Translations under genes and position numbers: made by a program
Shown here: piece after piece, positions 19,733 to 54,992 of the stretch
Position numbering within the stretch: the first letter of the stretch is position 1
How the letters are laid out: each line of letters begins with the position of its first letter
The notes under the pieces: generated by a model
Databases searched by the model: none
Told to the model about the DNA's origin: nothing
The model's input: the letters and a program-made list of their open reading frames with translations, nothing else
Source of the DNA: Candidatus Omnitrophota bacterium
GTDB taxonomy: Bacteria; Omnitrophota; Gorgyraeia; Gygaellales; Profunditerraquicolaceae
Reading direction: 5' to 3'
Length of the DNA stretch: 64,000 nucleotides
Assembly (NCBI GenBank): GCA_041650295.1
Contig: JBAZLM010000001.1
Coordinates: forward strand, 128,318-192,317

Positions 19733-19759
19733 ACTAAATTTTAAAATAAAGGAGTTAAA

Positions 19760-35600: not shown

Positions 35601-35817
35601 ATATTTTTTGTTACTTTGTAAGATTTAGCCAGAAAATTTAAAGTATTTAAAATTTCCCTTGCATTTTGCAAAGCTTTATAATATCATTAAAAACTAAGGG
35701 GGAGTAATGCGCAAAATTTTTTTATCTTCTAAGATATTCCAGTGCAGTGGTTAAGCTAATTGCCTGGATTTTTTTGTGCCCGGAATTTTAGGTATTATTT
35801 TTAATTATAATATTTTT

Positions 35818-39258: not shown

Positions 39259-41421
39259 ATGTCCAAAACAATTGTAATATTTAGCACTAAAGGCGGTGTT
39301 GGCAAGACTTTAGTGGCAACTAATTTAGCAGTATCTTTGGCGCAAGTTGGCAAGCGCGTCTGTTTGATTGATTTAGATACGCAGGTTGTCGGCGACATGG
39401 CGCACATGTTGGGTTTAGTTCCGCAGCGGTGTTTAGCGGATCTGATGAATATTCTAACTAAACAGCCACAGTTAACCAAGAAAAAAGATTTTATCATTAG
39501 AAGCGATTCTGCGAATATTGATTTTATTCCTGGAGTATTGAAACCACAACAATCTGGCTACCTTATTGCTGAAAAAATTCCCGAAGTTTTTTCTTTTTTA
39601 GAAAAAGATTATGATTATATTGTAGTGGATGCGGGAAAAAGTTTTAGCGATGTTTTTCTTTCCACATTAAGTCAAGCTAATTTGATTTTACTAGTCGCCA
39701 CCCCGGATGTGCTTTCCATTGAGCAAACTAAATGGGCTTTAGAGACATTGCAGATGTTACATTTTCCGTTAAGCATGGTAAGGTTAATACTCAACAGGTC
39801 AGAGTCTTTATCTAGTATTAGTTGGCAGGAGATTCGGGTTAATTTGCCAGTTAATATCATTGAAAAAGTTCCTTCCGACGGTAAATTAGTAAATTTGGCG
39901 GTTAATCGTAGGGTGCCTGTAGTGATTGATGCGGCACGTTCTAAAATTGCATTGGCTTTTTCTGAACTCGCCGATATTTTAATTGCAGATAAAGGAATAT
40001 TTACGGAACGAAAAAATATTGACCAGATTAAAATGAAGGAAGTAGCTCGCGAAAAATCTGGTCAATTTTGGATGGAACAGGATCTTAATACTGGGGTGCT
40101 TGAGCCAGATACTTATGAAGGCCGGGATGAGATTTTAGTGCTTAAGCGTCGGATTCACAGCCGCCTTTTAGAAAACATGAAGATTAAAAGTATAGATCTT
40201 AATGTTTTTAGTGATCAAAAAAAAGCTAAAGATTTAAAAAATAGTGCAGAAGCGATGGTGAATAATCTTTTAGTTGAGGAGGCAGGTAGCTTTATCCCTT
40301 CTCAAGAAGTGCGCAAAGGCCTGGTTAAAGAGATATTAGACGAAGCCTTAGGATTAGGGGCTTTAGAGGATTTATTAGCTGATCCGGAAATTACGGATAT
40401 TATGGTTAATAATAAGGATGAGGTTTTTGTTGAACGTTTTGGAAAAATTGAACTGACGAATAAAAAATTTATTTCTAATGATCAGGTACGTACAATTATT
40501 GAACGTATTATTGCTCCGATTGGTAGACGTATTGATGAATCAGTGCCAATGGTTGATGCGCGTTTAACCGATGGTTCTCGAGTAAATGCAATTATTTCGC
40601 CACTATCTTTGACCGGTCCAACCCTAACGATTAGAAAATTTCGTAAAGAAAGATATCGGGTTAATGATTTATTGGCTTTTGGTGCGCTGAATACGGCGAT
40701 GGCAGATTTTATTAAAGCCTCGGTATTGTGTCGTAAAAATATGATTGTCTCTGGAGGAACTGGCTCTGGAAAAACTACAGTTTTAAATGCTTTGTCTGAA
40801 TTTATTCCCGAAGGAGAAAGAATTATTACCTTAGAGGATGCGGCGGAACTTAAATTAAATCAACGACATTGGATTAGATTAGAGTCTCGACCGATGAATA
40901 TTGAAGGTAAGGGTGGGTTAACCATTCGAGATCTTTTTCGTAATACTCTACGTATGCGTCCAGATCGAATTATCGTCGGAGAATGCCGTGGTTCTGAATC
41001 ACTAGATATGTTGCAAGCGATGAATACTGGCCACGATGGCTCTATGACCACTATTCATGCTAACTCGGCTTCAGATGTTTTAAGCCGACTGGATTCTATG
41101 ATTTTGATGTCGGGAATTGAGTTACCGGTGAGAGCAATCCGAGAGATGGTTTCTTCAGCGGTTGATATTATTGTGCACACTGCTCGGCTTAGCGATGGTT
41201 CACGTAAAGTTTTGTCAATTGCTGAAGTGGCCGGAATGAAGGACGAAGCACATATAAATTTAAGCGACATCTTTGTTTTTACGCAAACTGGCGTAGATGC
41301 TCAAGGAAAGGTGCAGGGGTATTTTACTGCTACTGGTTATAAACCTACATTCTTAAATGAAATTAGGATGCGGGGCGTTGAAATTTCTGATGATGTTTTT
41401 AAGCCTACCAAATCTAAATAA
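39259..41421 (+). CDS. fused TadZ/CpaE-like ParA ATPase + TadA/CpaF secretion ATPase
   Basis: N-terminal deviant Walker A (STKGGVGKT, MinD/ParA). C-terminal half carries the T2SSE/VirB11 motifs: Walker [10 protein letters not shown], Asp box [10 protein letters not shown] and His box [16 protein letters not shown]. Confidence 0.75.
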
Positions 41422-41427: not shown

Positions 41428-41772
41428 ATGCCACTAATTAATTTCACTAAAAATATTGTATTGGCCCAAGATGTTTTTATCGCTAAAACTATATTGGCCA
41501 GGGCCAGAGGATTATTGGGAAGAAAAATTTTCTCTCCACAACAAGCTTTAATTCTTGATTCGTGTAATTCAGTACACACTTTTTTTATGCATTTTCCGAT
41601 TGATATAATTTTTGTAGATAAGAATTATAAAGTTATTAAGCTAATCTCTAATTTTAAGCCTAATCGTATAAGCAAAATATGCTGGCATGCCAGCAAGGTT
41701 ATTGAGTTGCCTTCAGGCGTATTAAATGCCACCAAAACCCAACTCCACGATCAGTTGCAAGTCCTAGGTTAA
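41428..41772 (+). CDS. DUF192 family protein
   Basis: Motifs ARGLLGRK..LILDSCNSVHTFFMHFPIDIIFVDKNYKVI are typical of DUF192/COG1430. Confidence 0.45.
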   Translation: MPLINFTKNIVLAQDVFIAKTILARARGLLGRKIFSPQQALILDSCNSVHTFFMHFPIDIIFVDKNYKVIKLISNFKPNRISKICWHASKVIELPSGVLNATKTQLHDQLQVLG

Positions 41773-43902: not shown

Positions 43903-44049
43903 GTGAAAGATTCGCAATTAACTGGGCAAAGCATTTTAGAGTATGTCATTATTTTTGCAGTTGTTGCGCTTCTATCTGTTGCGTTATTACCAGAGATTAA
44001 AAATATATTTGATAGTTATGTCAATAGCGCCACCGGAGCAATGAAATGA
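43903..44049 (+). CDS. flp: Flp-family pilin (GTG start, 48 aa)
   Basis: VKDSQLTGQSILEYVIIFAVVALLSVALL carries the class-III prepilin motif G/QSILEY plus a hydrophobic helix; not in the track (<60 aa). Confidence 0.55.
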   Translation: MKDSQLTGQSILEYVIIFAVVALLSVALLPEIKNIFDSYVNSATGAMK

Positions 44050-44207
44050 TCTTGTGTAGACATAGAGGACAAAGCGTAGTTGAATACACCTTATTGATTA
44101 TTATTGTAGCGGCGGCTTTAGCGGCGATGTCTACTTATATTATGCGCTCAATGAATGCTCGTTTAAAGTCAGCGCAAGATGAGATGAATTATTATCGTCA
44201 AGATTAA
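44046..44207 (+). CDS. flp: Flp-family pilin (53 aa)
   Basis: MILCRHRGQSVVEYTLLIIIVAAALAAM carries the G/QSVVEY motif; overlaps the previous gene by 4 nt (ATGA), consistent with translational coupling. Confidence 0.55.
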   Translation: MILCRHRGQSVVEYTLLIIIVAAALAAMSTYIMRSMNARLKSAQDEMNYYRQD

Positions 44208-44231
44208 TGAAATTATTTTTGAAGGAGAGAG

Positions 44232-44396
44232 ATGAAAAGATTAGATAAAGCCCAAAGCACTTTAGAGTATGTAATTATTTTAGCTGCAGTAGTAGGAGCA
44301 ATCTTGGTTGTGGCTTCGGCTTTGAAGTCAAAGATGTCAACTGAGGTTTATCCGACGATGATGAATAAAATGTCGGATGCAGTGAAAAAAATTTAA
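44232..44396 (+). CDS. flp: Flp-family pilin (54 aa)
   Basis: MKRLDKAQSTLEYVIILAAVVGAILVVA; RBS GAAGGAGAGAG. Confidence 0.6.
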   Translation: MKRLDKAQSTLEYVIILAAVVGAILVVASALKSKMSTEVYPTMMNKMSDAVKKI

Positions 44397-44427
44397 TAGG
44401 AAGGTAAATATAATAAGGAGAAGAAAG

Positions 44428-44613
44428 ATGAAAATATCAAAAAAAGCACAAAGCACTTTAGAGTATGTAATTATTCTAGCAGCGATTGTAGGAGGAATTC
44501 TTCTGGCTGCGTCATTAATAAAAGGGAAGTTAGAGAATGAAACGACTGGTCCGGTGGGTAAAATAATGGGCAAGGCGGTAGAAAAAGTGGGAGAAGTAGA
44601 TTTTACTAAATAA
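44428..44613 (+). CDS. flp: Flp-family pilin (61 aa)
   Basis: MKISKKAQSTLEYVIILAAIVGGILLAA. Confidence 0.65.
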   Translation: MKISKKAQSTLEYVIILAAIVGGILLAASLIKGKLENETTGPVGKIMGKAVEKVGEVDFTK

Positions 44614-44627
44614 TGGAGAGGGTAAAG

Positions 44628-44807
44628 ATGAAAATAACTAGAAAAGCTCAAAGTACTTTAGAGTATGTAATTATTCTGGCAGCAGTGGTGGGAGCAATTA
44701 TAGTCATAGCAGTTTTTGTGAAAAAAAACATAGGCGATGACGCTGGAATGTATGGGACTTTAGGTGAAAGCATGGAAAAATCCGTCAAGGATGATTTTAA
44801 ATTTTAA
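44628..44807 (+). CDS. flp: Flp-family pilin (59 aa)
   Basis: MKITRKAQSTLEYVIILAAVVGAIIVIA; RBS GGAGAGGG (the track ORF begins 15 nt earlier). Confidence 0.65.
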   Translation: MKITRKAQSTLEYVIILAAVVGAIIVIAVFVKKNIGDDAGMYGTLGESMEKSVKDDFKF

Positions 44808-44820
44808 CAAAGGGGAGATT

Positions 44821-45171
44821 ATGTTAAAACGACTAATCAAGGGTCAAAGTACTGCAGAGTATGCAATTGTCATTGGGCTGGTGATTGCTGCAGCTGTAGC
44901 GATGCAAGTTTTTGTTAAGCGACAATTGCAAGGAAAGATGAAAAATGTTACTGATGCTGAAGTAGCAGCAAATAAAGATGGAGATACATTTGGAGTCAAT
45001 GAGTATCTGCAATATGAACCACAGGAAACTTATAGCCAAGGTGCTATGGTGTCGGAAAGTGAATCTGAGGTAAAAGTTACAACTACTAAGGGTGGAGCGG
45101 TGACTAGGAGTATGCTGAAGGATGAGGTTTCATCAAGAACAGGTACTCAAATAATAGAAGAAGTAAAATAA
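44821..45171 (+). CDS. flp: Flp-family pilin with extended C-terminus (116 aa)
   Basis: MLKRLIKGQSTAEYAIVIGLVIAAAVAM carries G/QSTAEY; RBS AAGGGGAG; the track ORF starts at 44764. Confidence 0.6.
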   Translation: MLKRLIKGQSTAEYAIVIGLVIAAAVAMQVFVKRQLQGKMKNVTDAEVAANKDGDTFGVNEYLQYEPQETYSQGAMVSESESEVKVTTTKGGAVTRSMLKDEVSSRTGTQIIEEVK

Positions 45172-45186
45172 GAATAGGAGGAAGAG

Positions 45187-45489
45187 ATGTTTTATAAAAG
45201 AATAAAAGCTCAAAGCACATTAGAATATGTAATTTTGATTGGTTTTGTAGTGGCTGCCCTGATTGCTATGGGTGTTTATATGAAAAGAGGCGTGCAGGGG
45301 AAGATTCGTGATTCTAGTGATCAGATTGGTGAACAATATGAAGCGGGTAAAACTACGAGTAAATATACGATCACAACTGATTTGGACCAAACGGAAACAG
45401 TGAGTGGTTCCGGAAAAACAACAACTAAAATTAATAAAAATACTCAAACTAAAAAACAAGATGCTGCGGAAGTGGTGCCGGATCTTTAA
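45187..45489 (+). CDS. flp: Flp-family pilin (100 aa)
   Basis: MFYKRIKAQSTLEYVILIGFVVAALIAM; the first ~150 nt are identical to the gene at 46284. Confidence 0.6.
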   Translation: MFYKRIKAQSTLEYVILIGFVVAALIAMGVYMKRGVQGKIRDSSDQIGEQYEAGKTTSKYTITTDLDQTETVSGSGKTTTKINKNTQTKKQDAAEVVPDL

Positions 45490-45519
45490 TTGGAAGTGTT
45501 TTTTGAGGAGGGATTAAAT

Positions 45520-45852
45520 ATGTTAAAGCAAAAAAATCTTGGCCAAAGTACCGCAGAGTATGCAATTGTAATTGGGTTGGTGATTGCGGCGGCTGTTGCA
45601 ATGCAGATTTATGTGAAGCGTGGATTACAGGGTAAGATGAAAGGCGCGGTAGATTATTCACCAGATACGAAAATATTTACAACTAAACAATTTGAACCTG
45701 CGTATAGCGATAGTGTTATGAATACTACGAAAACAGGTTCGACTACTGTTGAGACAAAAGAAGGTGGTGGCGTGGAAAGAAGGCTTACTGCAGCTGGTGA
45801 AGTGACCAAGTCTACTGGGACCCAAACTACTTTAGGGGTAGGAGAATATTAA
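45520..45852 (+). CDS. flp: Flp-family pilin (110 aa)
   Basis: MLKQKNLGQSTAEYAIVIGLVIAAAVAM; N-terminus near-identical to the gene at 45909; the track ORF starts at 45490. Confidence 0.6.
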   Translation: MLKQKNLGQSTAEYAIVIGLVIAAAVAMQIYVKRGLQGKMKGAVDYSPDTKIFTTKQFEPAYSDSVMNTTKTGSTTVETKEGGGVERRLTAAGEVTKSTGTQTTLGVGEY

Positions 45853-45908
45853 TAAAAGAAATGATACTATTGTGTAAATTTTAATACTTTGCGTAGGAGG
45901 CGATTAAT

Positions 45909-46271
45909 ATGTTAAAGCAAAAAAATCTTGGCCAAAGTACCGCAGAATACGCGATTGTCATTGGATTAGTAATTGCTGCGGTTGTGGCGATGCAGATTTA
46001 TGTTAAACGTGGTCTACAGGCTAAAATGAGGGATGCGGTAATGGTAAAAGGCGACGGTGCGGATACTTTAATGACGAATGAAGCATATGAGCCAGATTAT
46101 AGTAGCAGTAGTATGGATATTGTAAGAACTGCTGCAGAGTCAACGGAGATGGCAGATCAAGGGAAAGTAATAAGAACATTAGCTGGTAAGGGTGGCGCAG
46201 AATATGATGTAACTACTAGAAAGGGTGATCAGTCAACATCTACTTTAGCTAGTGACGGCGTGAAAAGATAA
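45909..46271 (+). CDS. flp: Flp-family pilin (120 aa)
   Basis: MLKQKNLGQSTAEYAIVIGLVIAAVVAM. Confidence 0.6.
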   Translation: MLKQKNLGQSTAEYAIVIGLVIAAVVAMQIYVKRGLQAKMRDAVMVKGDGADTLMTNEAYEPDYSSSSMDIVRTAAESTEMADQGKVIRTLAGKGGAEYDVTTRKGDQSTSTLASDGVKR

Positions 46272-46283
46272 TAGGAGGAAGAG

Positions 46284-46607
46284 ATGTTTTATAAAAGAAT
46301 AAAAGCTCAAAGCACATTAGAATATGTAATTTTGATTGGTTTTGTAGTGGCTGCCCTGATTGCTATGGGTGTTTATATGAAAAGAGGCGTGCAGGGGAAG
46401 ATTCGTGATTCTAGTGATCAGATTGGCGGACAATATGATGCCAAGGATACATCATCCGAGTATATTACAAAGACTTATATAAAACAGAATGAATATCAAT
46501 ATAAGGGCGGTGGAAGCAAGACTGAAATTGCTGATAACAACCCAGAGAATTATAAAATAGAGAAAAAGGGCAGTGAAACTGTGGAAAAAGATCTTTCGAT
46601 AAAGTAA
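46284..46607 (+). CDS. flp: Flp-family pilin (107 aa)
   Basis: MFYKRIKAQSTLEYVILIGFVVAALIAM; duplicate N-terminal cassette of the 45187 gene. Confidence 0.6.
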   Translation: MFYKRIKAQSTLEYVILIGFVVAALIAMGVYMKRGVQGKIRDSSDQIGGQYDAKDTSSEYITKTYIKQNEYQYKGGGSKTEIADNNPENYKIEKKGSETVEKDLSIK

Positions 46608-46630
46608 GTTAAATAAGAAAGGACGTTAAA

Positions 46631-47932
46631 ATGAAAAATCTGCGCGGACAAAATACCCTAGAGTATATTTTTATAATTGGGATTGTAGCTGCGGGATTAG
46701 CTGCGATGTTAGTTTATTTTGGTCGTGCATTTCAAGGAAATATTCGTGATAAGGCTGAGCAGTTAGGTGCGGGGCAATATGATCCGGGAAAGATGACGGT
46801 CGATAACAAAACAACAAAAACAGTAAGCTCTACTGTTATATCTAAGGATATCACTAAAATTCAATATGCAGATCTGAGTTTTGCAAAAACATTACAGGAT
46901 CAGATTACTGCACAGTTGGCACTTATGAAGTTGAATGAAATAGATTTGATGGCGCTACGTAATGATTATGAGAAAGCCATTCAAGCAGAAGCAGCGAAGC
47001 AAGCTAATTATGGAGTAATTGATAAAATTAAAGATAGGCTGGCACCAAGTTTTAGCGGGGAAGCAAATAAGGAAAAAATTGAGGGTCTTTTAGCCCAAGC
47101 ACAAAATTTGAAAGCGCAAATAGATAATGCGGCAGCTAATGAGAATAAGCTAACAGTGCAGCTAAATATTGCTAATGAAGATTTGGCTAAAGATCCAGAT
47201 AATGCGCAGCTTAAAGATTCAGTGGCATCAATCCAAAAACAAATCGATCAACTTAAAGAAAGTGGTCCTATGGTTCAGCTTGCGTATGATCGGGCAGTTT
47301 TAGAGTATATGGATAAGAAGTTGGCATCTAGTGCTACGGATGCAACCTGTCAGGCAAGATTTAATCAACTTGTTAAATCTTATACTGCGCCTCCATGTGA
47401 GTCAGTAGATCCATTAGAATGTTCAACCCCATATTATTCTGACCCTTATTATGGCAAAGAAACAAAAGCTTGTAGCCCTCCTGGATCATGTGGACCTCCA
47501 TACGAAAGTCCAGAGCAAGCTAAAAATGATATACAGGCGCAACTAGATGCTAAACTAGAGGAAGGAAAAAAAGAGGGTGAGGCTGAAGATAATCCTTTAA
47601 TTGCGATTGATTATACTGATGGACAAAAAGAAGCACTTCAAAATAAAACGGCTACCGTGTTTGATGCGATTGATGCGATTAGGCCGCCTTTTAGCGTTAA
47701 AAATATTGGGGATATGGAGCTCACTGCTATTGAATATCAAACTAAGCTTTTAAATAAGGAAACCGAATATTTTACAAATGTTACAAATTATTTAAGTTTA
47801 TCTCAACAGTTAAAACAATTATATGCAACCAATTTGAAGCCAAATGAAACTTTGTATGTAGGCCATGAAAACCAAGCGGACGTTCATACAAGCGTTATAA
47901 AAACAAAGAAAGAAAATTTGAATAAATTTTAA
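46631..47932 (+). CDS. Flp-like prepilin N-terminus fused to 400-aa coiled-coil/Cys-rich extension (possible tip adhesin/minor pilin)
   Basis: MKNLRGQNTLEYIFIIGIVAAGLAAM, then a long α-helical region (KLNEIDLMALRNDYEKAIQAEAAKQ...) and a Cys/Pro-rich segment (PPCESVDPLECSTPYYSDPYYGKETKACSPPGSCGPPYE). Confidence 0.5.
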   Translation: MKNLRGQNTLEYIFIIGIVAAGLAAMLVYFGRAFQGNIRDKAEQLGAGQYDPGKMTVDNKTTKTVSSTVISKDITKIQYADLSFAKTLQDQITAQLALMKLNEIDLMALRNDYEKAIQAEAAKQANYGVIDKIKDRLAPSFSGEANKEKIEGLLAQAQNLKAQIDNAAANENKLTVQLNIANEDLAKDPDNAQLKDSVASIQKQIDQLKESGPMVQLAYDRAVLEYMDKKLASSATDATCQARFNQLVKSYTAPPCESVDPLECSTPYYSDPYYGKETKACSPPGSCGPPYESPEQAKNDIQAQLDAKLEEGKKEGEAEDNPLIAIDYTDGQKEALQNKTATVFDAIDAIRPPFSVKNIGDMELTAIEYQTKLLNKETEYFTNVTNYLSLSQQLKQLYATNLKPNETLYVGHENQADVHTSVIKTKKENLNKF

Positions 47933-47942
47933 TGAAATATTA

Positions 47943-48284
47943 ATGATTAATTTAAGAAAAATAAAAGCTTTTAGTAAGGGTCAAAACTTAGCGGAGGTGG
48001 CTTTAGTTGTTGCTTTAGTAGGATTGGTTTTTGCGGGGATGCAAATTTATTTAAAACGTGGCGTACAGGGTAAGTTAAAAGATTTAACGGATACAATGGT
48101 TAGCAATGGTAGCCCGGCACAGGCGGCCAACCCCGATTCTACTAAGGCACACGAGAGCTCAAGGAACAACATTGTTTCTGTCTCTTCAACAACTTTTGAA
48201 GAGTCTAAGGATGGGGTGAGAAGTCTATCTGGTATAGAGGAAACAAAAACAGAAACAAGTTCATATTCTTTAACTGAAGAGTAA
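47943..48284 (+). CDS. Flp-like pilin (113 aa, G/QNLAEV variant)
   Basis: SKGQNLAEVALVVALVGLVFAGMQIY. Confidence 0.5.
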   Translation: MINLRKIKAFSKGQNLAEVALVVALVGLVFAGMQIYLKRGVQGKLKDLTDTMVSNGSPAQAANPDSTKAHESSRNNIVSVSSTTFEESKDGVRSLSGIEETKTETSSYSLTEE

Positions 48285-48305
48285 ATTTGGTCAAAGGAGT
48301 ATGTT

Positions 48306-48995
48306 GTGATGTTTAAAGAGAAAGCACAAGCAATTACAGAATTAGCAATCTTGGGGGTCTTGGTGATTGTAGCTTTTTCATTTTTAATTAGTTATAGTGA
48401 AAAGCTAAATCGCCAACAGGCAAATATGCAACAAACCTTTCGAGCGGCTCTTGATGAGGCAAAAAAAATTAATAATTCTATTAATTATACAAAAAAAGTT
48501 TTTTCGCGTATGCCTAGTATTGAAAATCCTAAAGAGTTAGGTCAATTGGAGACTTTTAATGACAATGCTACTCTTTTGTGGAGTGATGGTATGGATACTG
48601 AGAATGTTTATTATTTTGATCCTGTAAGTAAAGAATGGGTTTTATCAGGCAGGTATGTACTCCCTGGGACATCGAAGTATCAATTTAATGATGCTGTTAA
48701 AACAATACCTTCTACCCCTAATGAATATGATGAATATGGAAACTTGATCCCTCCTTCTATGGATAATAAAGGAGTAATTTCTACTACGGATAGCTCTGTT
48801 CATGATACTAAAGCCACTACTATTTTAAGTCAAAAAAGTGTTTTAGGGGATGCAAATATGACTACGGAAAAAAAGTTTGAGGCTACAGACACGGTGACTA
48901 CAACTGTAAATATTGACGGACAAACTTATACTTTTTCTCATTCTTTAGGAGAGCATGGTAAATATTCTTCTGTGGGAGCAGGGGTCAAGCGTTAA
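48306..48995 (+). CDS. TadE/TadF-like pseudopilin (229 aa)
   Basis: MMFKEKAQAITELAILGVLVIVAFSFLIS is a TadE-like N-terminus, followed by a large periplasmic domain. Confidence 0.45.
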   Translation: MMFKEKAQAITELAILGVLVIVAFSFLISYSEKLNRQQANMQQTFRAALDEAKKINNSINYTKKVFSRMPSIENPKELGQLETFNDNATLLWSDGMDTENVYYFDPVSKEWVLSGRYVLPGTSKYQFNDAVKTIPSTPNEYDEYGNLIPPSMDNKGVISTTDSSVHDTKATTILSQKSVLGDANMTTEKKFEATDTVTTTVNIDGQTYTFSHSLGEHGKYSSVGAGVKR

Positions 48996-49007
48996 GGAGG
49001 GTTAATT

Positions 49008-49310
49008 ATGAAAAATAAAGCTCAGGCCACCTTAGAATTTACGGTAGTTTTTATAATCATGGTTGCTTTACTTATAGGTATGGTTAAATTATGGAAAATG
49101 TCTAGTGATAGGATTATTAGTCGCCAGGTAGAATATAATGCTAGCCGCCTAAAAGCAGGGGAGAAAGACGCTACTTTAGTAGCGCCTCTGAAGGTAATAA
49201 AAAAAGGTAGTGGTAGTGGTAGTTATGCTGGTAAAGCTGGTGGCTATGGAGGTGGTAGTAGTGGTTATAGTGGTGGTGGTTATGGTCCAGTAGGTGGAGG
49301 TGGATGGTAA
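49008..49310 (+). CDS. TadE-like pseudopilin with Gly/Ser-rich tail (100 aa)
   Basis: MKNKAQATLEFTVVFIIMVALLIGM; C-terminal GSGSGSYAGKAGGYGGGSSGYSGGGYGPVGGGGW. Confidence 0.45.
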   Translation: MKNKAQATLEFTVVFIIMVALLIGMVKLWKMSSDRIISRQVEYNASRLKAGEKDATLVAPLKVIKKGSGSGSYAGKAGGYGGGSSGYSGGGYGPVGGGGW

Positions 49311-49320
49311 GTGTGGAGGA

Positions 49321-51081
49321 ATGATGTTTTTTTCTTGGTATATTAAAAATAGACATTTTAAGCAAGGGAACAGTTTTTCTGGTCAGATTGTTCCTTTTTT
49401 ATTGGTAATTATAGTTGTTTTGCTAATTGCTGCAGTATCTGTGATTCAAATAGGAAGAGTCTCTATTGATAAAACTGCTACCGCTAATGCCGCAGATGCG
49501 GGTTCTTTGGCTGCTGCTTCCAGTTGGGCTTCAGCACTTAATAGCTTAACTTTTGATAATGTTAATTTATTTTCTGGGTTTGATCTTAGGAAGTATTTAG
49601 TTAACGCTACTCTTATTCCCCAAGCAAATTATTATTTAGCCTTAACTGCACTTTATGTCAAAGCTTCAGAAAAAGAAGCGATGGTTGGTGCCGCTTTTAT
49701 GGCGGGCGGCATGCTACCGATTCCTTGTGTAGAATTAGCGGCAATTCTTGCTGCAGAATGGTATATGACTCAAGCGATGATGTATACAAATAAGGCATTG
49801 AGTAATTTACAATCTTATTTACAACTTTTATATTTTATAAAATTAGTGACAGAAGAATGTTATAATAACCAACAACAAGTGTATTTAGATATCAAAAATA
49901 GGATGGATGAAGCTTATCGTAATGCTAAAAAGGATGGGTTTCGTTTTGCTTTTATGAATAGCGGAGTAACTAGTAAACTTTCTAAAAAACAGGGAGATGA
50001 TTTCAATTTGTTTTTAGATAAAACAATTGCAGCAGGAGTTGATGCTGGTCAAGATACTATTCAGGTTGATTGGAAGGATAAAATGGGGAGAATTCATACT
50101 GTTTCAGCTACATTAGATTTACCAAATATAGAGTCTTATATGCTTTGGCGTTCCCAGCTTACTTATAATGAGATGCAATCATTATATGATGGAATTATAA
50201 ATAAAGTAAATAAATCGATATCAAAATTAAATAAAGCAATTTTAGAGTTAGGAATAACCGTTGTTGCATTGGGTGTGGCTGCTATAATTACTGCTGTGAT
50301 TTGTGTTTTGTTTTGCATTCCTCCATTTGGTACGATTGCAGCGGAAGTCATGAGCGCTGCTAATACGTGGACTAAAGTAGCTATTGCCCTAGGAATAACG
50401 GCATATATATCTACCGTGGTAGCAATGTTTAATACTTTTGAGGAGGATGAGGCTTCTTTGGAAAATATGGTAAATAATACTTTAATTGATCGGTCTTGGG
50501 ACAGTGGTCAATTAGTTGGCACTGCTTTTATCGATAAGTCTACATATTTGGATGTTCCTGCAACTTTAACTAAGGAGCAATTTTTAGCAGAAGTTTCCGG
50601 CGGACCTTGGAGTGGTTTATCTGAGTATCTAGCAATAACTTATCCTTATGGGGCAATGACATTGCAAGATGTAATGATTATTGCTATTGAAAGGGTTGAT
50701 TTAAAACCTGGTAAGCTATGGCAAGCAAAATTATGTACAACTCAGACTCATCCGGTGATAGATATTAGTTCTGGTGCGACGAAGAATGTTGTTACTACTA
50801 GCTGTTCTAGTTCTAAATTTGATGGTGGGAGTATGAAGATGAATTTTGCGATGTTTCCAGACCCTCCACATGCTTTGGACTGGCTAACTAATCTTGCCGG
50901 AAGCAGGACTACTTTAGAAAATGTTGCGGATGTTATAGAAGAGCGTAATCTTACATGGGAGTGGTATGCTGATACTGGCTGGGACCCTGTAGTTGTTCCA
51001 CCAACACCTGAAGATATTGAAAAAGCGTTAAGAGATTCTGTTGATGCCAATTATTCTCCACAGATTATTGCTACAGAGTAA
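49321..51081 (+). CDS. TadG-like pilus assembly protein (Tad_N domain)
   Basis: RBS GGAGG; FSGQIVPFLLVIIVVLLIAAVSVIQIGRVSIDKTATANAADAGSLAAASSWA matches the TadG N-terminal domain; large C-terminal domain; the track ORF begins at 49294. Confidence 0.55.
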   Translation: MMFFSWYIKNRHFKQGNSFSGQIVPFLLVIIVVLLIAAVSVIQIGRVSIDKTATANAADAGSLAAASSWASALNSLTFDNVNLFSGFDLRKYLVNATLIPQANYYLALTALYVKASEKEAMVGAAFMAGGMLPIPCVELAAILAAEWYMTQAMMYTNKALSNLQSYLQLLYFIKLVTEECYNNQQQVYLDIKNRMDEAYRNAKKDGFRFAFMNSGVTSKLSKKQGDDFNLFLDKTIAAGVDAGQDTIQVDWKDKMGRIHTVSATLDLPNIESYMLWRSQLTYNEMQSLYDGIINKVNKSISKLNKAILELGITVVALGVAAIITAVICVLFCIPPFGTIAAEVMSAANTWTKVAIALGITAYISTVVAMFNTFEEDEASLENMVNNTLIDRSWDSGQLVGTAFIDKSTYLDVPATLTKEQFLAEVSGGPWSGLSEYLAITYPYGAMTLQDVMIIAIERVDLKPGKLWQAKLCTTQTHPVIDISSGATKNVVTTSCSSSKFDGGSMKMNFAMFPDPPHALDWLTNLAGSRTTLENVADVIEERNLTWEWYADTGWDPVVVPPTPEDIEKALRDSVDANYSPQIIATE

Positions 51082-51095
51082 CTAAGGAGGGGGTA

Positions 51096-51911
51096 ATGAG
51101 AGTTTTCAAATCAAGCATTATAATTATGGGGTTAATTTTGGTGTTTTGTTTAAAATGTTCTTGTCTTTTGGCAGCTACAAAAAGCATTCCTTTGCCAGCA
51201 GATTCAGTAAAGATTTCACAAGAAGATTCATCTTTGGGACCATTTAAATCTACTACCGAAGTTTACCAGTCTTTTCTTTCACAAAAAAAATTGGAAGAGT
51301 TTTTCAAAAAAGAAATGAAGCTGGCTGGCTGGGAAAAAGATAAGAAAGGAATTTTTGTTAAAGATGATTATAAGATTTCGATTATTTTTGGTCCGGTGAA
51401 AACTTCTAAAGGAGCAACTTTATTTTTAATCAATAATCATAAAGACATAGACCAACAGCAGTTGCTTGCAGAACGTAAGATAAAACCAGATAAGTTAAGT
51501 TTTATGCCTATCTATCCGCAGAGTGTACAGAATTTTCTTTGGGATACTCCTACAGGGGTTATGGGTAGTTATGAAACAACTAGTAGTATTTATGATGCAG
51601 TTTTTTTCTATAAAAGTTCTATGTTAAATTATGGGTGGACACTTTATAGTGAAATACCAATTAAGGAAACAACGGTTAAGGAACCAATAGATGAAAGAAA
51701 TAAAATGCCGACGATTACTAGGGTTGCTACATTAAGATTTAATAAAAAAACAGGGGAATCTTGTTTTTTAATGTTTAATAGTATTTCTGGTAACCTTGAT
51801 CAAGTGGCTTTATTAAAAGGAGAGCAGCTGGTAGATCCTAAAAATGAAGCTATATCACATAAAACAAATATCAGTGTAGCTTATAATGAAGGTAAGAAAA
51901 ATAATAAATAA
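51096..51911 (+). CDS. secreted hypothetical protein (271 aa)
   Basis: Signal peptide MRVFKSSIIIMGLILVFCLKCSCLLAA; no known motif. Confidence 0.3.
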   Translation: MRVFKSSIIIMGLILVFCLKCSCLLAATKSIPLPADSVKISQEDSSLGPFKSTTEVYQSFLSQKKLEEFFKKEMKLAGWEKDKKGIFVKDDYKISIIFGPVKTSKGATLFLINNHKDIDQQQLLAERKIKPDKLSFMPIYPQSVQNFLWDTPTGVMGSYETTSSIYDAVFFYKSSMLNYGWTLYSEIPIKETTVKEPIDERNKMPTITRVATLRFNKKTGESCFLMFNSISGNLDQVALLKGEQLVDPKNEAISHKTNISVAYNEGKKNNK

Positions 51912-52056
51912 AGCACAATCAACCCTAGAGTATATTGCCGTAATCCTAGCGATTATTGGCGTATTCGTTGCTATGCAAAAATATTATCAACGTAGCTTAC
52001 AGGGTACATTTCGCCAAGCCGGTGATGCAATTGGTGGTGGCGAACAATCAGACTAG
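51886..52056 (+). CDS. flp: Flp-family pilin (56 aa), overlapping the 3' end of the previous gene
   Basis: MKVRKIINKAQSTLEYIAVILAIIGVFVAMQKYY..; not in the track (<60 aa). Confidence 0.5.
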   Translation: MKVRKIINKAQSTLEYIAVILAIIGVFVAMQKYYQRSLQGTFRQAGDAIGGGEQSD

Positions 52057-52081: not shown

Positions 52082-52927
52082 ATGCTTATTTTGCTCAGTA
52101 TCTTAATTTTAGCTTCAGTTATTTTAGTCTCAATTAGTCTTTTGCCTTTTTTTGTGCAAAAGGTTCAAGTTTGGCAAAAGAAGCAGGAAGTCGTAGTTGC
52201 TGAAAAGATGGATGAAATGTTTTATAATAAAAATCCTCGTAATATTGCCATGCTTTATATTATTCTTCCGTTTGTTTTTGGTATAGCCGGATATTTCTTA
52301 CTACAGTCTATTATTTTTGCTATTTTTGGGATATTTATTGGTTTAGTGATCCCAAATTTAATTTTAAAGATGCGTTATAAAAAGAGGCTTAAAATGTTTA
52401 ATAATCAGCTTTTGGATGCGATTAATATGCTTTCTAGCTGCTTAAAGGGTGGTTTAAGTCTTTTACAAGGTTTTGAGGTTTTAGTTGAAGAGATGCCTGC
52501 TCCGATAAGTGAAGAGTTTAGTTTGGTGGTTAAAGAAAACAAGATGGGGATTCCTTTGGAGGAAAGTTTAGTACGTTTGAATAAAAAGATGAACATGGAA
52601 GAGTTGGGTTTAGTAATTAATGCGCTTTTGGTTGCTCGGGAGACTGGAGGTGAGTTGACCAAGGTCTTTAGTCGTTTGATTATTACAATCAGAGATAATC
52701 GTAAACTTAAGGAAAGCATCCAAACTCTTACCTTGCAGGGTAGGCTCCAAGGAGCAATTATGTCTTTTTTGCCAATTGTTTTTGTGGCTTGGGTTCTTTC
52801 GGTAAATAAGAATCATTTTGATATTATGATGTCAAGTGATATTGGTAGAATGCTTTTAATCGGAGCAGTAGTATTGCAAATTGTGGGAATGATTTTAATT
52901 AAAAAGTTTAGTACAATTAAAATATAA
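52082..52927 (+). CDS. tadB: Flp pilus assembly protein TadB (T2SSF domain)
   Basis: TM-cytoplasmic T2SF domain-TM architecture; VARETGGELTKVFSRLIITIRDNRKLKESIQTLTLQGRLQGAIMSFLPIVF. Confidence 0.7.
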   Translation: MLILLSILILASVILVSISLLPFFVQKVQVWQKKQEVVVAEKMDEMFYNKNPRNIAMLYIILPFVFGIAGYFLLQSIIFAIFGIFIGLVIPNLILKMRYKKRLKMFNNQLLDAINMLSSCLKGGLSLLQGFEVLVEEMPAPISEEFSLVVKENKMGIPLEESLVRLNKKMNMEELGLVINALLVARETGGELTKVFSRLIITIRDNRKLKESIQTLTLQGRLQGAIMSFLPIVFVAWVLSVNKNHFDIMMSSDIGRMLLIGAVVLQIVGMILIKKFSTIKI

Positions 52928-52929: not shown

Positions 52930-53787
52930 ATGGAAATATTGTTATTTGTATTTGTTATTGCTGCAGTTGCCTTGATTACTTGGGGCGCGTTGCTTCATCA
53001 GCAAAACGCGCCTCTGCGCATGCCTAGTCAAATTGTAACCACTAAGTTTAAAAAATCCGGTCCAGATTTTGATAAAATTTTACCGACTCGGTCCTTATTA
53101 GATAGAACCGGGATGTTTGTTAGCATTAAAAATTCTTTAGATAATGCTCATATTAGTCTTTCTCCAGTAGCATTTTTTAATATTAAGATACTACTTTGTA
53201 TCTTGTTGACTGTGGTTCCAGGACTAGTGATGGGAAAAGCGGAGCCACCGTTAATTATTATTGGTTTGGGAATAGGATATTTTGGACCAGATTTTTATTT
53301 AAAACGTAAAATTAGTGAGCGCAAGTATTTGATTGCTCGTGGGCTTCCGGAAACAGTTGATCTTTTAAGTTTGTGTATTGAGGCTGGTTTAGATTTTATA
53401 AGCGCGGCTAGATGGGTAATTGATAAAACTCCGCGTACTCCAATGACTGAAGAGCTGGCCTTTGTGTTGGAAGAGGTTAAATGGGGTAAATCGCGAGTTC
53501 AAGCGCTTAAAGATATGGCACGTAGGATTAATGTCTCTGAAATGAGTTCATTTGTGCAAACGATTATTCAAGCTGAGCGTATGGGCACTCCAGTAGCAGA
53601 AGCATTTGCTATTCTTTCTGAAGATGCGCGTGCGCAAAGATTTCATCGTGGTGAAAGAATTGCTTTACAGGCGCCTATTAAGATCCTTCTTCCGCTAATT
53701 TTCTTTATTATGCCAGTAATTGGTATTGTTATTGGTGGTCCAATCTTGTTGCAATTTATGTCAGGTGGTTTTACCGGTCTTAAATAA
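52930..53787 (+). CDS. tadC: Flp pilus assembly protein TadC (T2SSF domain)
   Basis: LSLCIEAGLDFISAARWVID..AERMGTPVAEAFAILSEDARAQRFHRGERIALQAPIKILLPL. Confidence 0.7.
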   Translation: MEILLFVFVIAAVALITWGALLHQQNAPLRMPSQIVTTKFKKSGPDFDKILPTRSLLDRTGMFVSIKNSLDNAHISLSPVAFFNIKILLCILLTVVPGLVMGKAEPPLIIIGLGIGYFGPDFYLKRKISERKYLIARGLPETVDLLSLCIEAGLDFISAARWVIDKTPRTPMTEELAFVLEEVKWGKSRVQALKDMARRINVSEMSSFVQTIIQAERMGTPVAEAFAILSEDARAQRFHRGERIALQAPIKILLPLIFFIMPVIGIVIGGPILLQFMSGGFTGLK

Positions 53788-53805
53788 TTTTTAAATATTT
53801 GCTTA

Positions 53806-53846
53806 AAAGGGATGTTTCATCTAAATGAAACATCCCTTTTTTTGTT
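53806..53846 (+). terminator. rho-independent terminator after tadC
   Basis: AAAGGGATGTTTCAT-ctaa-ATGAAACATCCCTTT followed by T7. Confidence 0.7.
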
Positions 53847-54685: not shown

Positions 54686-54714
54686 TTGACAGCGTCTATC
54701 TGAGGTGTTATATT
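54686..54714 (+). promoter_or_regulatory. σ70-like promoter TTGACA-17 nt-TATATT
   Basis: TTGACA at 54686-91 and TATATT at 54709-14; about 20 nt upstream of the putative riboswitch. Confidence 0.45.
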
Positions 54715-54734
54715 TGAGTGTAAGTTGAAAAGGT

Positions 54735-54860
54735 CTTAAAAGTAAACTTAGAGTAATCTAAGGACACAAAGCCACGGATCCTTAATCCAAAAAGCAGTCT
54801 CAAGGATAGCCGGGTTGCCAGGCCGACGAGAGTTGGAGTAATGACAACTCGGTTTTATTG
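54735..54860 (+). promoter_or_regulatory. candidate c-di-GMP-I (GEMM) riboswitch with intrinsic-terminator expression platform
   Basis: GNRA-capped hairpin CUUAGA-GUAA-UCUAAG (54747-62), immediately followed by GGACACAAAGCC (cf. GEMM GGACGCAAAGCC). P3-like hairpin GGAUCCUU...AAGGAUAGCC, then AGCCGGGUUGCC (cf. GEMM AGCGGGGUUACCG). Terminator GAGUUG-gaguaauga-CAACUC+GGUUUUAUUG (54830-58). Confidence 0.45.
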
Positions 54861-54992
54861 TAGAGTTTCACAAATGATTTAGAAAAGTATTTAATAAGAA
54901 ACCTGATGCCCATGAAAAGAGAAATAAAAAATCTAAAAGATTTTGGGGTAAGGGGAAAAATTTATTTTTTATTTATTAGTAATAGGTAAAAG

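Follow-up and report, generated by a model that had tools for sequence, protein, structure and literature searches.

What does a single Tad locus build from 13 prepilin genes? The question is raised by a locus of a Candidatus Omnitrophota genome, analysed here within a stretch of 64,000 nucleotides (the window). A sequence-only reading had described it as a hyper-expanded array of 13 Flp-type pilins, two TadE-like proteins and one TadG-like protein. Related loci used for comparison are designated by L numbers.

Genes of the prepilin array

All six frames of the window were searched for the motif [G/A]-Q-x-x-x-E followed by a hydrophobic helix, which occurred at 15 sites, all on the plus strand between 43.9 and 52.0 kb, corresponding to the 13 pilins and the two TadE-like genes (Table 1). 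A generic prepilin detector, [GAS]-x4-E-[YFLIVMW] with 16 mainly hydrophobic residues after it, picked out exactly 15 sites in the six frames, again all in this interval of the plus strand and more than expected by chance; Q at position +1 and E at position +5 were present in all 15. Each of the 13 pilins carries a basic leader of 5-13 residues that ends in G or A ahead of Q+1 and E+5, and judging from these features the 13 genes clearly encode class III prepilins. Six of them (G1, G2, the three G3 copies and T) are helix-only pilins of typical Flp size, with 40-54 aa in the mature form. Sequence comparison confirmed the strong divergence of the C-termini among the pilins.

The 13 pilin-like, two TadE-like and one TadG-like ORFs were all found where they had been described. 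A Shine-Dalgarno sequence, matching AGGAGG at 4-6 of six positions, precedes 11 of the 13 pilin genes. Under the name "hypothetical protein", all array ORFs tested are deposited at NCBI (WC543_00890 to WC543_00970 of a Candidatus Omnitrophota MAG), and positional orthologs of all array ORFs exist in related loci. By these sequence criteria the ORFs are genuine genes, including the two shorter than 60 aa (W1 and W17), which have both NCBI records and orthologs. The fifth, sixth and eighth genes likely start at 44628, 44821 and 45520, respectively; the first two starts are based on short leaders and Prodigal calls, and 44628 also on the NCBI record, the frame of W5 being open from 44613 and its 59-aa product matching WC543_00910.

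Table 1. Coordinates of the Tad locus and its flanking elements within the window.
Feature	Position	Strand	Basis or remark
PPIase (Rotamase_2), first conserved locus gene	35776..36747	+	Pfam; position kept in L083-L089
RcpC/CpaB	36747..37643	+	PF16976, 81 bits
Secretin (RcpA/CpaC type)::TonB_C fusion	37659..39257	+	Secretin 129.6, T2SS-T3SS_pil_N 52, TonB_C 56 bits
TadZ (ParA-like)::TadA (T2SSE) fusion ATPase	39259..41421	+	AAA_31/CbiA residues 3-212; T2SSE 365-643
DUF192 protein	41428..41772	+	PF02643, 59.5 bits; position kept in L083-L089
X654, Omnitrophota-specific, 654 aa	41856..43820	+	
W1, small pilin, G1, 40 aa mature	43903..44049	+	WC543_00890; orthologs in L083/L084
W2, small pilin, G2, 45 aa mature	44046..44207	+	Motif, orthologs, NCBI
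W3, small pilin, G3 copy 1	44232..44396	+	Class_IIIsignal 17.8 bits; DNA repeat family D3
W4, small pilin, G3 copy 2	44428..44613	+	Sequence comparison, DNA repeats
W5, small pilin, G3 copy 3	44628..44807	+	Class_IIIsignal 19.8 bits
W6, A-type pilin copy 1, 108 aa mature	44821..45171	+	
W7, B-type pilin copy 1, helix + beta-hairpin	45187..45489	+	AF2 model
W8, A-type pilin copy 2	45520..45852	+	
W9, A-type pilin copy 3	45909..46271	+	
W10, B-type pilin copy 2	46284..46607	+	159-nt tract in common with W7
W11, large pilin, L, 427 aa mature	46631..47932	+	Fast-evolving C-terminal extension
W12, pilin, G7, QNLAEV motif	47943..48284	+	V replaces Y at +6; NCBI, orthologs
W13, TadE-like pseudopilin 1, E1, A-QAITEL	48306..48995	+	Motif, position, orthology
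W14, TadE-like pseudopilin 2, E2, Gly-rich tail	49008..49310	+	TadE PF07811 17.7 bits, cut-off 22.9
TadG-like protein	49294..51081	+	PF13400 31.8 bits, cut-off 22.3
W16, signal-peptide-like, possibly lipoprotein N-terminus, 271 aa	51096..51911	+	Conserved in related loci
W17, trailing small pilin, T	51886..52056	+	Motif, orthologs, NCBI
TadB-like platform protein	52082..52927	+	T2SSF 62.5 bits
TadC-like platform protein	52930..53787	+	T2SSF 60.5 bits
Terminator-like hairpin, 16 pairs + T run, Tad operon end	53805..53840	+	Consensus scan only
c-di-GMP-I riboswitch aptamer, giant-gene leader	54731..54822	+	RF01051 59.5 bits, gathering score 35
Giant ORF, 5' part, >3000 aa, runs off window	54993..64000	+	Open frame 54990-63998

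Family assignment

None of the 13 pilins matched Flp_Fap (PF04964), even at E ≤ 1, whereas canonical Flp pilins of the control loci scored 42-46 bits. The archaeal model Class_IIIsignal (PF04021) matched six pilins below threshold (13.9-19.8 bits against a cut-off of 23.7), three of the 13 matched DUF4244, and an NCBIfam search of the pilins gave no match. No array ORF in the window reached the Pfam cut-offs of Flp_Fap, Class_IIIsignal or TadE; among 83 orthologs of array genes, 22 matched Class_IIIsignal, 11 Flp_Fap and four TadE. The label Flp-type, which the sequence-only reading had itself tied to such a search, must therefore formally be dropped in its Pfam sense. Overall, family assignment is weaker than that reading had supposed. 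The TadG-like protein passes PF13400, one TadE-like protein (W14) stays below the TadE threshold, and the other (W13) has no Pfam match, some of its orthologs matching TadE.

A sequence search of the PDB revealed no relative of the TadG-like protein. The AF2 model of W7, built from a 66-sequence alignment, shows a helix (residues 3-36) and two strands (52-64 and 70-83); a structural-neighbour search with this model, of moderate confidence (pLDDT 70.5), found none. Of the 899 members of the W7 family, those that are named come from Omnitrophota with a single exception. The C-terminus of W2 is conserved (..RSMNARLKxAQDExxYY), and W11 shares just 26-30% identity with its positional orthologs in L083, L084 and L098. 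The possible lipoprotein has no Pfam match in its window copy; its orthologs, 36-69% identical in close relatives, show a faint to unmarked match to PF27226.

Organisation and conservation of the locus

The identity of the locus as Tad was borne out, as RcpC, a secretin with T2SS-T3SS_pil_N, TadZ::TadA, TadB, TadC and the TadG-like protein were all recovered. From 5' to 3' the operon encodes PPIase, RcpC, secretin::TonB_C, TadZ::TadA, DUF192, X654 and the pilins, followed by two TadE-like proteins, the TadG-like protein, the lipoprotein, one more pilin, TadB and TadC. The giant gene lies downstream, behind the c-di-GMP riboswitch. This operon order is common to L003, L083, L084, L086-L089 and dozens of metagenome loci of Omnitrophota; the giant ORF comes after the operon in L083, L084 and L086-L089 as in the window, and each of the six related loci examined for the riboswitch has it at the equivalent place. 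The C-terminal TonB_C of the secretin is kept in related loci, and the nearest relatives of TadZ::TadA are from Omnitrophota MAGs (50-54% identity). X654 combines an HTH of transposase type at its N-terminus with a long helix and a globular domain of 440 aa, and may be derived from a transposase. The single Pfam match of the giant ORF is Peptidase_C39 (24.8 bits). As the sequence-only reading had noted, the window lacks a prepilin peptidase gene: no Peptidase_A24 match was found among its ORFs of at least 100 aa, nearly all of which were scanned.

The window holds 15 pilin-like genes, compared with 0-6 (median 1) in 78 non-Omnitrophota Tad loci retrieved with the same TadZ-TadA query, so the array is indeed far larger than in other Tad loci. 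However, the expansion is not peculiar to this genome, as related Omnitrophota loci have 6-17 pilin-like genes each, with a median of about 10. The 13 prepilins fall into eight groups of conserved position (from 5' to 3', G1, G2, G3, A, B, L, G7 ... T), which are the baseline of the related loci; three groups are amplified in tandem in the window (three G3, three A and two B copies). Across 28 complete loci the arrangement reads G1 G2 G3(1-4) [A B](1-3) L G7 E1 E2 ... T. The locus was already noted in a preprint by West-Roberts et al. (2023), which names PPIase among its components and mentions "many small genes" bearing class III signal peptides. Because the large pilin set is conserved and the locus was already sketched in that preprint, the array amounts to a larger version of a Tad-type locus already known from uncultured Omnitrophota and not a new system.

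Evolution of the array

W7 and W10 have in common a tract of 159 nt with one difference (45171-45329 and 46268-46426). Their first 47 codons show a dS of 0.033, and the remainder is saturated. With the synonymous divergence of the W8 and W9 N-termini (dS about 1.1), which are under equal constraint, as the reference, such a tract has a P of about 1e-10. A near-identical 5' tract beside saturated 3' halves points to homogenisation by gene conversion. Paralogs with identical 5' and divergent 3' parts likewise occur in L086, L096/L098 and L126, and by eye the C-termini of W7 and W10 resemble those of different L086 copies; the paralogs thus seem to predate the divergence of the window and L086 lineages.

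Such conversion, together with constant N-termini bearing variable C-termini and the conserved, possibly transposase-derived X654 adjoining the array, would suit a system of antigenic or phase variation, as had been suggested, in which cassette recombination alters the expressed pilin. We consider this scarcely probable. All copies are complete genes with a start codon, most with a Shine-Dalgarno sequence; conversion affects the constant 5' part rather than the variable one; and the resemblance of C-termini to copies of another genome, seen by eye, suggests stable rather than shuffled genes. No truncated or silent pilin cassettes were found in the 64 kb window, and the locus has no evident invertase gene, leaving variation without support within the window. 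An assembly artefact, with strain variants of one A-B pair joined through the 159-nt repeat, is just as improbable as the source of some of the copies. The segment from W7 to W10 and its copy number are resolved in one assembly only, the 193 kb JGI/NCBI contig; an ENA k141 contig stops at about 45313 within the identical tract, and full-length W7 and W10 proteins occur in the JGI/NCBI assembly only, with W2, W5, W12 and W17 present in all four sources. But independent MAGs and metagenome contigs carry tandem A-B repeats whose copies have identical 5' and divergent 3' parts (three in L086, two in L098/L096, two in L112 and three to four in L126), and the adjacent W8 and W9, at the N-terminal dS given above, are too old for strain variants.

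Identity was also compared in four close locus pairs (L083/L084, L140/L147, L089/L137 and L088/L087). Between L083 and L084 the machine parts are 87-95% identical, and the machine taken together with the small, A, B and T pilins 77-95%, compared with 44% for L, 60% for G7, 59% for E1, 67% for E2, 52% for the TadG-like protein and 69% for the lipoprotein. The pattern of a slow machine and fast L-to-lipoprotein genes recurs in the other three pairs. The block of large pilin, TadE-like, TadG-like and lipoprotein genes hence diverges far faster than the machine between close relatives, the TadG-like gene being the fastest-evolving of the locus.

Proposed role of the array

Based on these data we propose, with a probability of roughly 60%, that the array encodes the structural subunits of a conserved Tad-type (type IVc) filament machine of Omnitrophota, immediately upstream of a giant gene under c-di-GMP riboswitch control. 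A prepilin peptidase encoded elsewhere would cut the prepilins at [G/A]-Q. The helix-only pilins (G1-G3 and T) and the helix/beta-hairpin A and B pilins, whose evolutionary rates are about as low as those of the machine, would form the fibre body. A distal or priming (tip) module of fast-evolving proteins, in contact with the outside world, a host or prey, would be made up of L, G7, both TadE-like proteins, the TadG-like protein and the neighbouring lipoprotein. This tentative division draws on analogy, protein size and relative evolutionary rate. The A/B paralogs would be old, with gene conversion holding their 5' constant parts identical while the 3' parts remain distinct, and the repeats would allow copy-number change through unequal crossing-over. 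Diversified or specialised fibre parts are plausible.

The many pilin-like proteins could alternatively build a short periplasmic pseudopilus, acting as a piston that drives cargo through the secretin, either the giant protein or glycoside hydrolases whose genes lie close by in related genomes; the T2SS likewise has one major and four minor pseudopilins. The constant association with the giant gene means that the machine could secrete rather than adhere, and "type II secretion system-like" is the label that West-Roberts et al. give to exactly this locus, conserved upstream of giant genes. We nevertheless regard a T2SS-like device as unlikely. RcpC, TadZ, two single-domain T2SSF proteins and the TadG-like protein with PF13400 are Tad-specific; GspC/L/M and the N_methyl-type pseudopilin signature were not found; and the giant gene forms a unit of its own, with a dedicated riboswitch, beyond the terminator-like hairpin. 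According to the preprint abstract, giant proteins contain many transmembrane segments, poorly suited to secretin passage. Even less probable is a set of alternative fibres, chosen by regulation, with G1, G2, G3a-c and T each the major subunit of its own filament. The typical Flp size of the six helix-only pilins and the varying number of G3 copies (one to four depending on the locus) would fit such a set, as would the differential expression of Bdellovibrio flp1-4 and the suggestion by the M. maripaludis authors that their non-essential pilin-like proteins might build additional pilus-like structures. However, the genes lie in one apparent operon with short or overlapping gaps: the stop of W1 overlaps the start of W2 (ATGA), and W17 overlaps the preceding gene by 26 nt, an overlap kept in L083, L084 and L088. 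Internal promoters and terminators are not in excess in a consensus scan, and G1, G2, G3 and T co-occur in most, not all, loci, suggesting distinct, non-redundant roles.

The short leader and Q at +1 of the window pilins are also found in archaeal Epd pilins. The Bdellovibrio Tad system resembles the locus in its TadZ::TadA fusion and the absence of TadV (in the window, within 64 kb); there PilD processes Flp1, and by analogy a T4aP PilD could serve as the peptidase here. The Kil Tad pilus of Myxococcus, in which a single major pilin is accompanied by 14 minor pilins and the tips are interchangeable, provides a precedent for the proposed tip module.

A class-III prepilin array within a Tad locus

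The ORF list between 38 and 58 kb revealed an uninterrupted gene run on the + strand that includes 13 ORFs with a short basic leader, the motif [G/A]-Q-[S/N]-x-x-E-[Y/V] and about 20 hydrophobic residues. Two further ORFs, the TadE-like W13 and W14, carry the motif A-Q-A-x-x-E-[L/F] and are followed by an ORF of 595 residues. A detector of class-III sites ([GAS]-x4-E-[YFLIVMW] followed by 16 mostly hydrophobic residues) was run on all six frames of the 64 kb window and found exactly 15 sites, all on the + strand and all in the array, a clustering that is far from chance. Each of the 15 sites has Gln at +1 and Glu at +5, with a leader of 5-13 residues ending in Gly or Ala. The 13 pilins (W1-W12 and W17) all possess Gly or Ala at -1 and Glu at +5, and 12 of them have Tyr at +6, the residue in W12 being Val. 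The sequence-only reading, which had described an array of 13 pilins, two TadE-like proteins and one TadG-like protein, was thus right on this point.

The genes are densely packed, with an ATGA overlap between W1 and W2 and a 26-nt overlap between W16, encoding a 271-residue lipoprotein-like product, and W17. Upstream of 11 of the 13 pilin genes lies, at proper spacing, a match to AGGAGG at 4-6 of the six positions. Full-length W7 and W10 proteins were found only in the JGI/NCBI assembly, the flanking pilins in all four sources; the ENA k141 contig stops at about 45,313, inside the tract shared by W7 and W10, and the copy number is to be read with this caveat.

The gene order of the locus is Rotamase_2 PPIase, RcpC, secretin::TonB_C, TadZ::TadA, DUF192, X654 (an Omnitrophota-specific protein of 654 residues), pilins, TadG-like protein, the 271-residue protein with a signal-peptide-like N-terminus, one pilin, TadB and TadC. 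The TadA-type T2SSE domain (PF00437, 211.8 bits) occupies residues 365-643 of a 720-residue protein, the residues 2-212 of which match AAA_31, CbiA and ParA and correspond to a fused TadZ/CpaE ParA-like part. TadB and TadC contain one T2SSF domain apiece. RcpC matches PF16976 (81 bits), and the secretin (PF00263, 129.6 bits) is accompanied by the pilus N-terminal domain PF13629 (52 bits). With TadA, TadB and TadC, RcpC and secretin, and TadZ all recognizable among its predicted products, the locus is assigned to the Tad (type IVc) systems. The C-terminal TonB_C domain of the secretin scores 56 bits, and the fusion is kept in all related Omnitrophota loci.

Positions of the features in the window and in related Omnitrophota loci
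Sequence	Feature	Position	Strand
Window	Amt, N-terminal 135 aa	17988-18395	+
Window	Amt, C-terminal 370 aa	18260-19372	+
Window	tRNA gene	34982-35062	+
Window	tRNA gene	35317-35391	+
Window	Tad secretin with TonB_C	37659-39257	+
Window	DUF192 (COG1430) gene	41428-41772	+
Window	X654 gene	41856-43820	+
Window	Class-III detector sites	43,924-51,913	+
Window	Start of W5	44628	+
Window	W7/W10 shared tract	45171-45329 and 46268-46426	+
Window	TadB	52082-52927
Window	TadC	52930-53787
Window	Promoter-like site	54686-54714
Window	c-di-GMP-I riboswitch aptamer	54731-54822	+
Window	Giant ORF (runs past window end)	54993-63998	+
L083	Aptamer	21691-21782
L084	Aptamer	21271-21362
L086	Aptamer	21221-21312
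L087	Aptamer	20959-21050
L088	Aptamer	20580-20670
L089	Aptamer	21322-21413
L085 (GCA_041643195.1)	Variant locus	10001-21962
L090	Variant locus	10001-22079
L087	IS200-type Y1 transposase gene	19942-20634
L089	IS200-type Y1 transposase gene	20150-20854

The locus recurs within the phylum

The nearest relatives of the TadZ::TadA protein are found in Omnitrophota MAGs at 50-54% identity. X654 has 186 homologs, every named one from Omnitrophota, and the loci fetched via these homologs and a metagenome scan repeatedly show the identical gene order, usually with a giant gene at the end. The DUF192 gene is fixed between tadZA and X654 in the related loci examined, with the exception of L090. A consensus scan for promoters and terminators gave counts not above those of shuffled sequences; we note only as leads a 16-bp hairpin with a T run 3' of tadC and the sites before W1 and the giant gene.

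Several features around the locus were also recorded. The 0.85 kb gap 5' of the PPIase gene contains two tRNA genes, and a tRNA gene is also found upstream in L086-L089. A divergent operon of FIST, histidine kinase and GGDEF response regulator, absent from the window, lies 5' of the PPIase gene in most of the related genomes (among L083-L090) and is another link of the locus to c-di-GMP. Two relatives deviate in layout. Immediately after X654, L085 has PilZ genes and an ABC sugar transporter, without pilins, TadB/C or giant gene; in L090, X654 lies 5' of the PPIase gene, and the 10 kb fetched contain no pilins after TadZA. These variants could be deletions, rearrangements or assembly collapse. 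In L087 and L089 an IS200-type Y1 transposase gene is inserted between tadC and the riboswitch and giant gene. Elsewhere in the window, the ammonium transporter gene Amt is split over two overlapping ORFs, reflecting either a frameshift (pseudogene) or a sequencing error.

Family assignment and prepilin peptidase

The label Flp used in the sequence-only reading is only loosely right: the small class-III prepilin motif is present, but none of the 13 window pilins matches Flp_Fap (PF04964), even at E<=1. Canonical G-A-T-x-x-E-Y Flp pilins from the control Tad loci L050, L041 and L008 score 41.7-46.3 bits with the same model (cut-off 32.2). Six of the 13 window pilins match the archaeal model Class_IIIsignal (PF04021) at 13.9-19.8 bits, all below the gathering score of 23.7, and three match DUF4244. 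Of the two TadE-like proteins, W14 scores 17.7 bits to PF07811 (cut-off 22.9) and W13 gives no match; the TadG-like protein passes PF13400 (31.8 against 22.3 bits). An NCBIfam scan of 10 pilin-like ORFs yielded noise only, and phmmer of the TadG-like protein against PDB sequences found no match.

Among 83 Omnitrophota orthologs, 22 match Class_IIIsignal at E<=0.01 (best 9e-6), making it the commonest Pfam match of Omnitrophota pilins, compared with 11 for Flp_Fap (best 5e-5), four for TadE (best 1e-6) and one for Flp1_like. One ortholog in L088 has an unmarked precomputed PF04021 match. A control pilin of Bdellovibrionales type matches Flp1_like, and a G-Q pilin from Elusimicrobia passes Class_IIIsignal. 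Therefore, as judged from these profile matches, the window proteins are class-III prepilins intermediate between the bacterial Flp and the archaeal models. Standard annotation consequently labels all these genes 'hypothetical'; for instance, NCBI entries in the range WC543_00890 to WC543_00970 (Candidatus Omnitrophota MAG), named 'hypothetical protein', are the exact products of W1, W2, W5, W7, W10, W12 and W17. Pilins with Gln at +1 are not unique to the phylum, as loci retrieved with the TadZ-TadA query and labelled Bdellovibrionales, Oligoflexia, Elusimicrobia, Firmicutes and Acidithiobacillus also encode them.

The absence of a TadV/CpaA prepilin peptidase, noted earlier from the sequence, was borne out: no Peptidase_A24 match was found among the window ORFs of at least 100 residues (nearly all were scanned), nor within 10 kb on either side in L083-L090. 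An EppA-type peptidase was not found in the window either.

Copy number and order of the pilin genes

Applied to 78 Tad loci from outside Omnitrophota, the same detector found 0-6 pilin-like ORFs with a median of 1. Where at least 9 kb of sequence follow X654, the Omnitrophota loci contain 6-17 with a median of about 10, including 15 in the window, 17 in L126 and 13-14 in L086. The large set is therefore a trait of the lineage, with this genome at the upper end. Hence the term 'hyper-expanded' of the sequence-only reading holds against other Tad loci (15 versus 0-6) but not as a property specific to this genome, since its relatives have 6-17. As to whether metagenome contigs break preferentially inside the array, 53 of 80 end within 4.5 kb after X654 but a similar number start inside X654, a comparison without a clean control from which no claim is drawn.

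Grouping by best hit gives the order G1 G2 G3 (1-4 copies), [A B] (1-3 pairs), L G7 E1 E2 ... T, where G1, G2, G3, A, B, L, G7 and T are pilin groups and E1 and E2 are the TadE-like W13 and W14. The window reads G1 G2 G3x3 A B A A B L G7 E1 E2 T. The per-group conservation statistics from this best-hit grouping are too crude to single out a major pilin.

Probable gene conversion between paralogs and a fast-evolving gene block

The paralogs are 49-65% identical overall, with the N-terminal 30-47 residues near-identical and the C-termini strongly diverged. One such pair is that of the B pilins W7 and W10. Their first 47 codons contain one synonymous difference (dS 0.033), whereas the remainder is saturated (dS about 3, dN 0.68); the tract common to both genes starts at the Shine-Dalgarno site, ends at codon 47 and differs at a single one of its 159 nt. 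For the N-termini of the A pilins W8 and W9, which are under equal constraint, pS is 0.58, a rate at which no more than one difference in 31 synonymous sites has a P of about 1e-10. The three B copies of L086 likewise combine identical 5' with divergent 3' parts, and L096/L098 and L126 show this pattern too. By eye, the C-terminus of W7 resembles that of copy B1 of L086, and the C-terminus of W10 that of copy B3. The A and B paralogs therefore look old, with gene conversion apparently evening out their 5' parts. For phase or antigenic variation, one of the explanations offered earlier, the window gave no support: a tblastn search of it with each variable C-terminus returned its own gene and weak paralog matches only, and no truncated silent cassettes of the pilE/pilS type.

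The AlphaFold2 model of mature W7, built with 66 homologs (pLDDT 70.5), comprises a helix of residues 3-36 followed by a β-hairpin (52-64 and 70-83). Foldseek of this model against the PDB found nothing below E=1. At E<=1e-3, 899 proteins belong to the B-type family; they are practically all of Omnitrophota origin and carry the JGI names 'UPF0333 family' and 'Flp pilus assembly pilin Flp'.

Comparison of the close relatives L083 and L084 revealed identities of 87-95% for the machine proteins and 77-91% for the small, A, B and T pilins. The values fall to 44% for L, 60% for G7, 59% for E1, 67% for E2, 52% for the TadG-like protein and 69% for the lipoprotein. The identical contrast was seen in L140/L147, L089/L137 and L088/L087, completing four close pairs. 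Therefore, the block of L, G7, E1, E2, TadG-like protein and lipoprotein changes at a much higher rate than the other genes of the locus, as would be expected, on these protein comparisons, of parts exposed to host or prey.

X654, the giant gene and a c-di-GMP riboswitch

X654 always lies between the DUF192 gene and the pilin array. Its AlphaFold2 model contains a Tc3/paired-type HTH, a long helix and a 440-residue domain that Foldseek matches marginally to Tn5 transposase. The residues D234, D329 and E466 are invariant, at a spacing that we take to be similar to that of the Tn5 DDE triad. At the sequence level, a profile search with X654 against the PDB gave coiled-coil noise only, and Pfam gave weak HTH_32/HTH_33 matches in 9 of 38 members. 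X654 may be a domesticated transposase or a regulator, the transposase idea being a lead from the modelled fold.

Downstream of tadC, an ORF of more than 3000 residues begins near 54,990. Its first 3000 residues have a single Pfam match, to Peptidase_C39 (residues 175-253, 24.8 bits against 22), and a faint match to the same family was seen in the giant ORF of L087. The leader of the giant gene contains a c-di-GMP-I riboswitch aptamer (59.5 bits against a gathering score of 35), with a good promoter-like site on its 5' side and the ORF start on its 3' side. All six related loci tested have an aptamer of the same clan (RF01051 or RF03167) at the equivalent position. As a regulatory link, the conserved riboswitch before the giant gene can be tested directly. 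No mention of a c-di-GMP riboswitch in Omnitrophota was found in the literature searched, and the words 'riboswitch' and 'c-di-GMP' are absent from the West-Roberts preprint on the giant genes (bioRxiv 10.1101/2023.11.21.568195).

Proposed role of the array

Omnitrophota are abundant, uncultured and ultra-small bacteria suspected to be predators or parasites. The Tad locus and the giant genes are the main candidates for host attachment in the phylum. We propose that the array encodes the subunit set of a Tad-type filament, in which G1-G3, A, B and T would form a conserved fibre or core. A variable module, either distal or priming, would comprise L, G7, E1, E2 and the TadG-like protein, perhaps joined by the lipoprotein. 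A wider reading is that of an integrated contact apparatus with five linked parts: a Tad machine with Epd-like Q+1 pilins, an A/B fibre, a tip, X654 and the giant protein. In the fibre, a copy-number-variable A/B cassette may have its constant 5' halves homogenised via gene conversion. The hypervariable large pilin, the two TadE-like proteins, the TadG-like protein and the lipoprotein may set host or prey specificity at the tip, and X654, possibly transposase-derived, may regulate or remodel the array. Finally, the c-di-GMP riboswitch may turn on the giant surface protein and so couple pilus contact to its deployment. For the five parts together we estimate a probability of roughly one in four.

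A serious rival is the interpretation by West-Roberts et al. of such loci as T2SS-like secretion systems. Our search for T2SS pseudopilins and platform proteins (N_methyl, GspL, GspM) returned no locus protein that passes, and the sole T2SS trace is a match of TIGR01709 gspL to W13 at E 0.24.

As part of a contact filament or otherwise, eight pilin groups and three pseudopilin-like proteins make up a conserved, structured repertoire, with a slow core, a fast distal block and gene conversion between paralogs. It offers concrete targets for proteomics, AF-multimer modelling and cryo-ET. An archaeal origin of Tad pili has been proposed, and the short-leader Q+1 signal peptides, lying between the Flp and Epd models, bear on this proposal.

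Comparison with known systems

The locus shares with the canonical Tad/Flp systems (Aggregatibacter flp-tad, Caulobacter cpa) RcpC/CpaB, the RcpA/CpaC secretin, TadZ, TadA, TadB, TadC, TadE/F-like and TadG-like proteins, and small prepilins with Glu at +5 and Tyr at +6. In contrast to these systems, it encodes 13 pilins, one to three flp genes being given as typical in the sequence-only reading; the leaders are short with Gln at +1, and Flp_Fap matches none of the 13 pilins against 42-46 bits for control Flp pilins. In addition, TadZ and TadA are fused, the secretin carries TonB_C, TadV is missing from the locus, and a conserved PPIase, DUF192 and X654 are added.

According to Seymour et al. 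(2023, PMC10066038), Tad complexes occur throughout the phylum, one of them being expressed in Velamenicoccus archaeovorus, and TadB/C of Omnitrophota cluster with their Bdellovibrionales counterparts. Similar to the window, Bdellovibrio bacteriovorus has a TadZ::TadA hybrid, no TadV in its tad loci and several flp genes, and its T4aP peptidase PilD processes Flp1, with PilZ/c-di-GMP links also described (bioRxiv 10.64898/2026.07.08.737194). This combination is a precedent for the peptidase missing here. The Bdellovibrionota loci fetched share G-Q pilins with Omnitrophota. However, the four flp genes of Bdellovibrio are dispersed over several loci without an adjacent giant gene, and its pilin type matches Flp1_like (PF16982), as does only 1 of 83 Omnitrophota orthologs.

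The Kil Tad pilus of the predator Myxococcus xanthus also has a very large repertoire, with one major, 14 minor and adapter pilins, and variable minor-pilin complexes at its tip recognise different prey (PMC12075869). This pilus, the tips of which are interchangeable, shows that Tad pilin sets of such a size can be employed by predators. Four clusters, apart from one another, encode the Kil tips, which act together with a T3SS-like basal body, whereas the window has one operon, the expansion of which affects the small, G3 and A/B pilins and not whole tip sets.

In the Epd system of Methanococcus maripaludis, the class III signal peptides are 5-13 residues long and end in Gly, with Gln at +1 and Glu at +5; the pilin-like proteins, from at least 10 genes, fall into three size classes (about 55-63, 130-156 and 200-299 residues) and are accompanied by two platform proteins (PMC3875500). 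The window pilins carry the features listed there for EppA substrates, and the size classes match too. Unlike the Epd system, the window belongs to a diderm bacterium, with secretin and RcpC and with the pilin genes in one operon.

The window is another instance of the Omnitrophota giant-gene locus of West-Roberts 2023, with all components in order: Rotamase_2 PPIase, rcpC, secretin, ATPase, many small class-III genes, two GspF-like genes and then the giant gene. The array size is a conserved trait of a locus type already outlined in the preprint, the passages of which consulted here contain neither a dissection of the pilins nor a riboswitch. To this outline the present analysis adds the eight-group grammar, the range of 6-17 copies, the signature of gene conversion in the 5' tracts, the distal block with its fast evolution and the c-di-GMP riboswitch.
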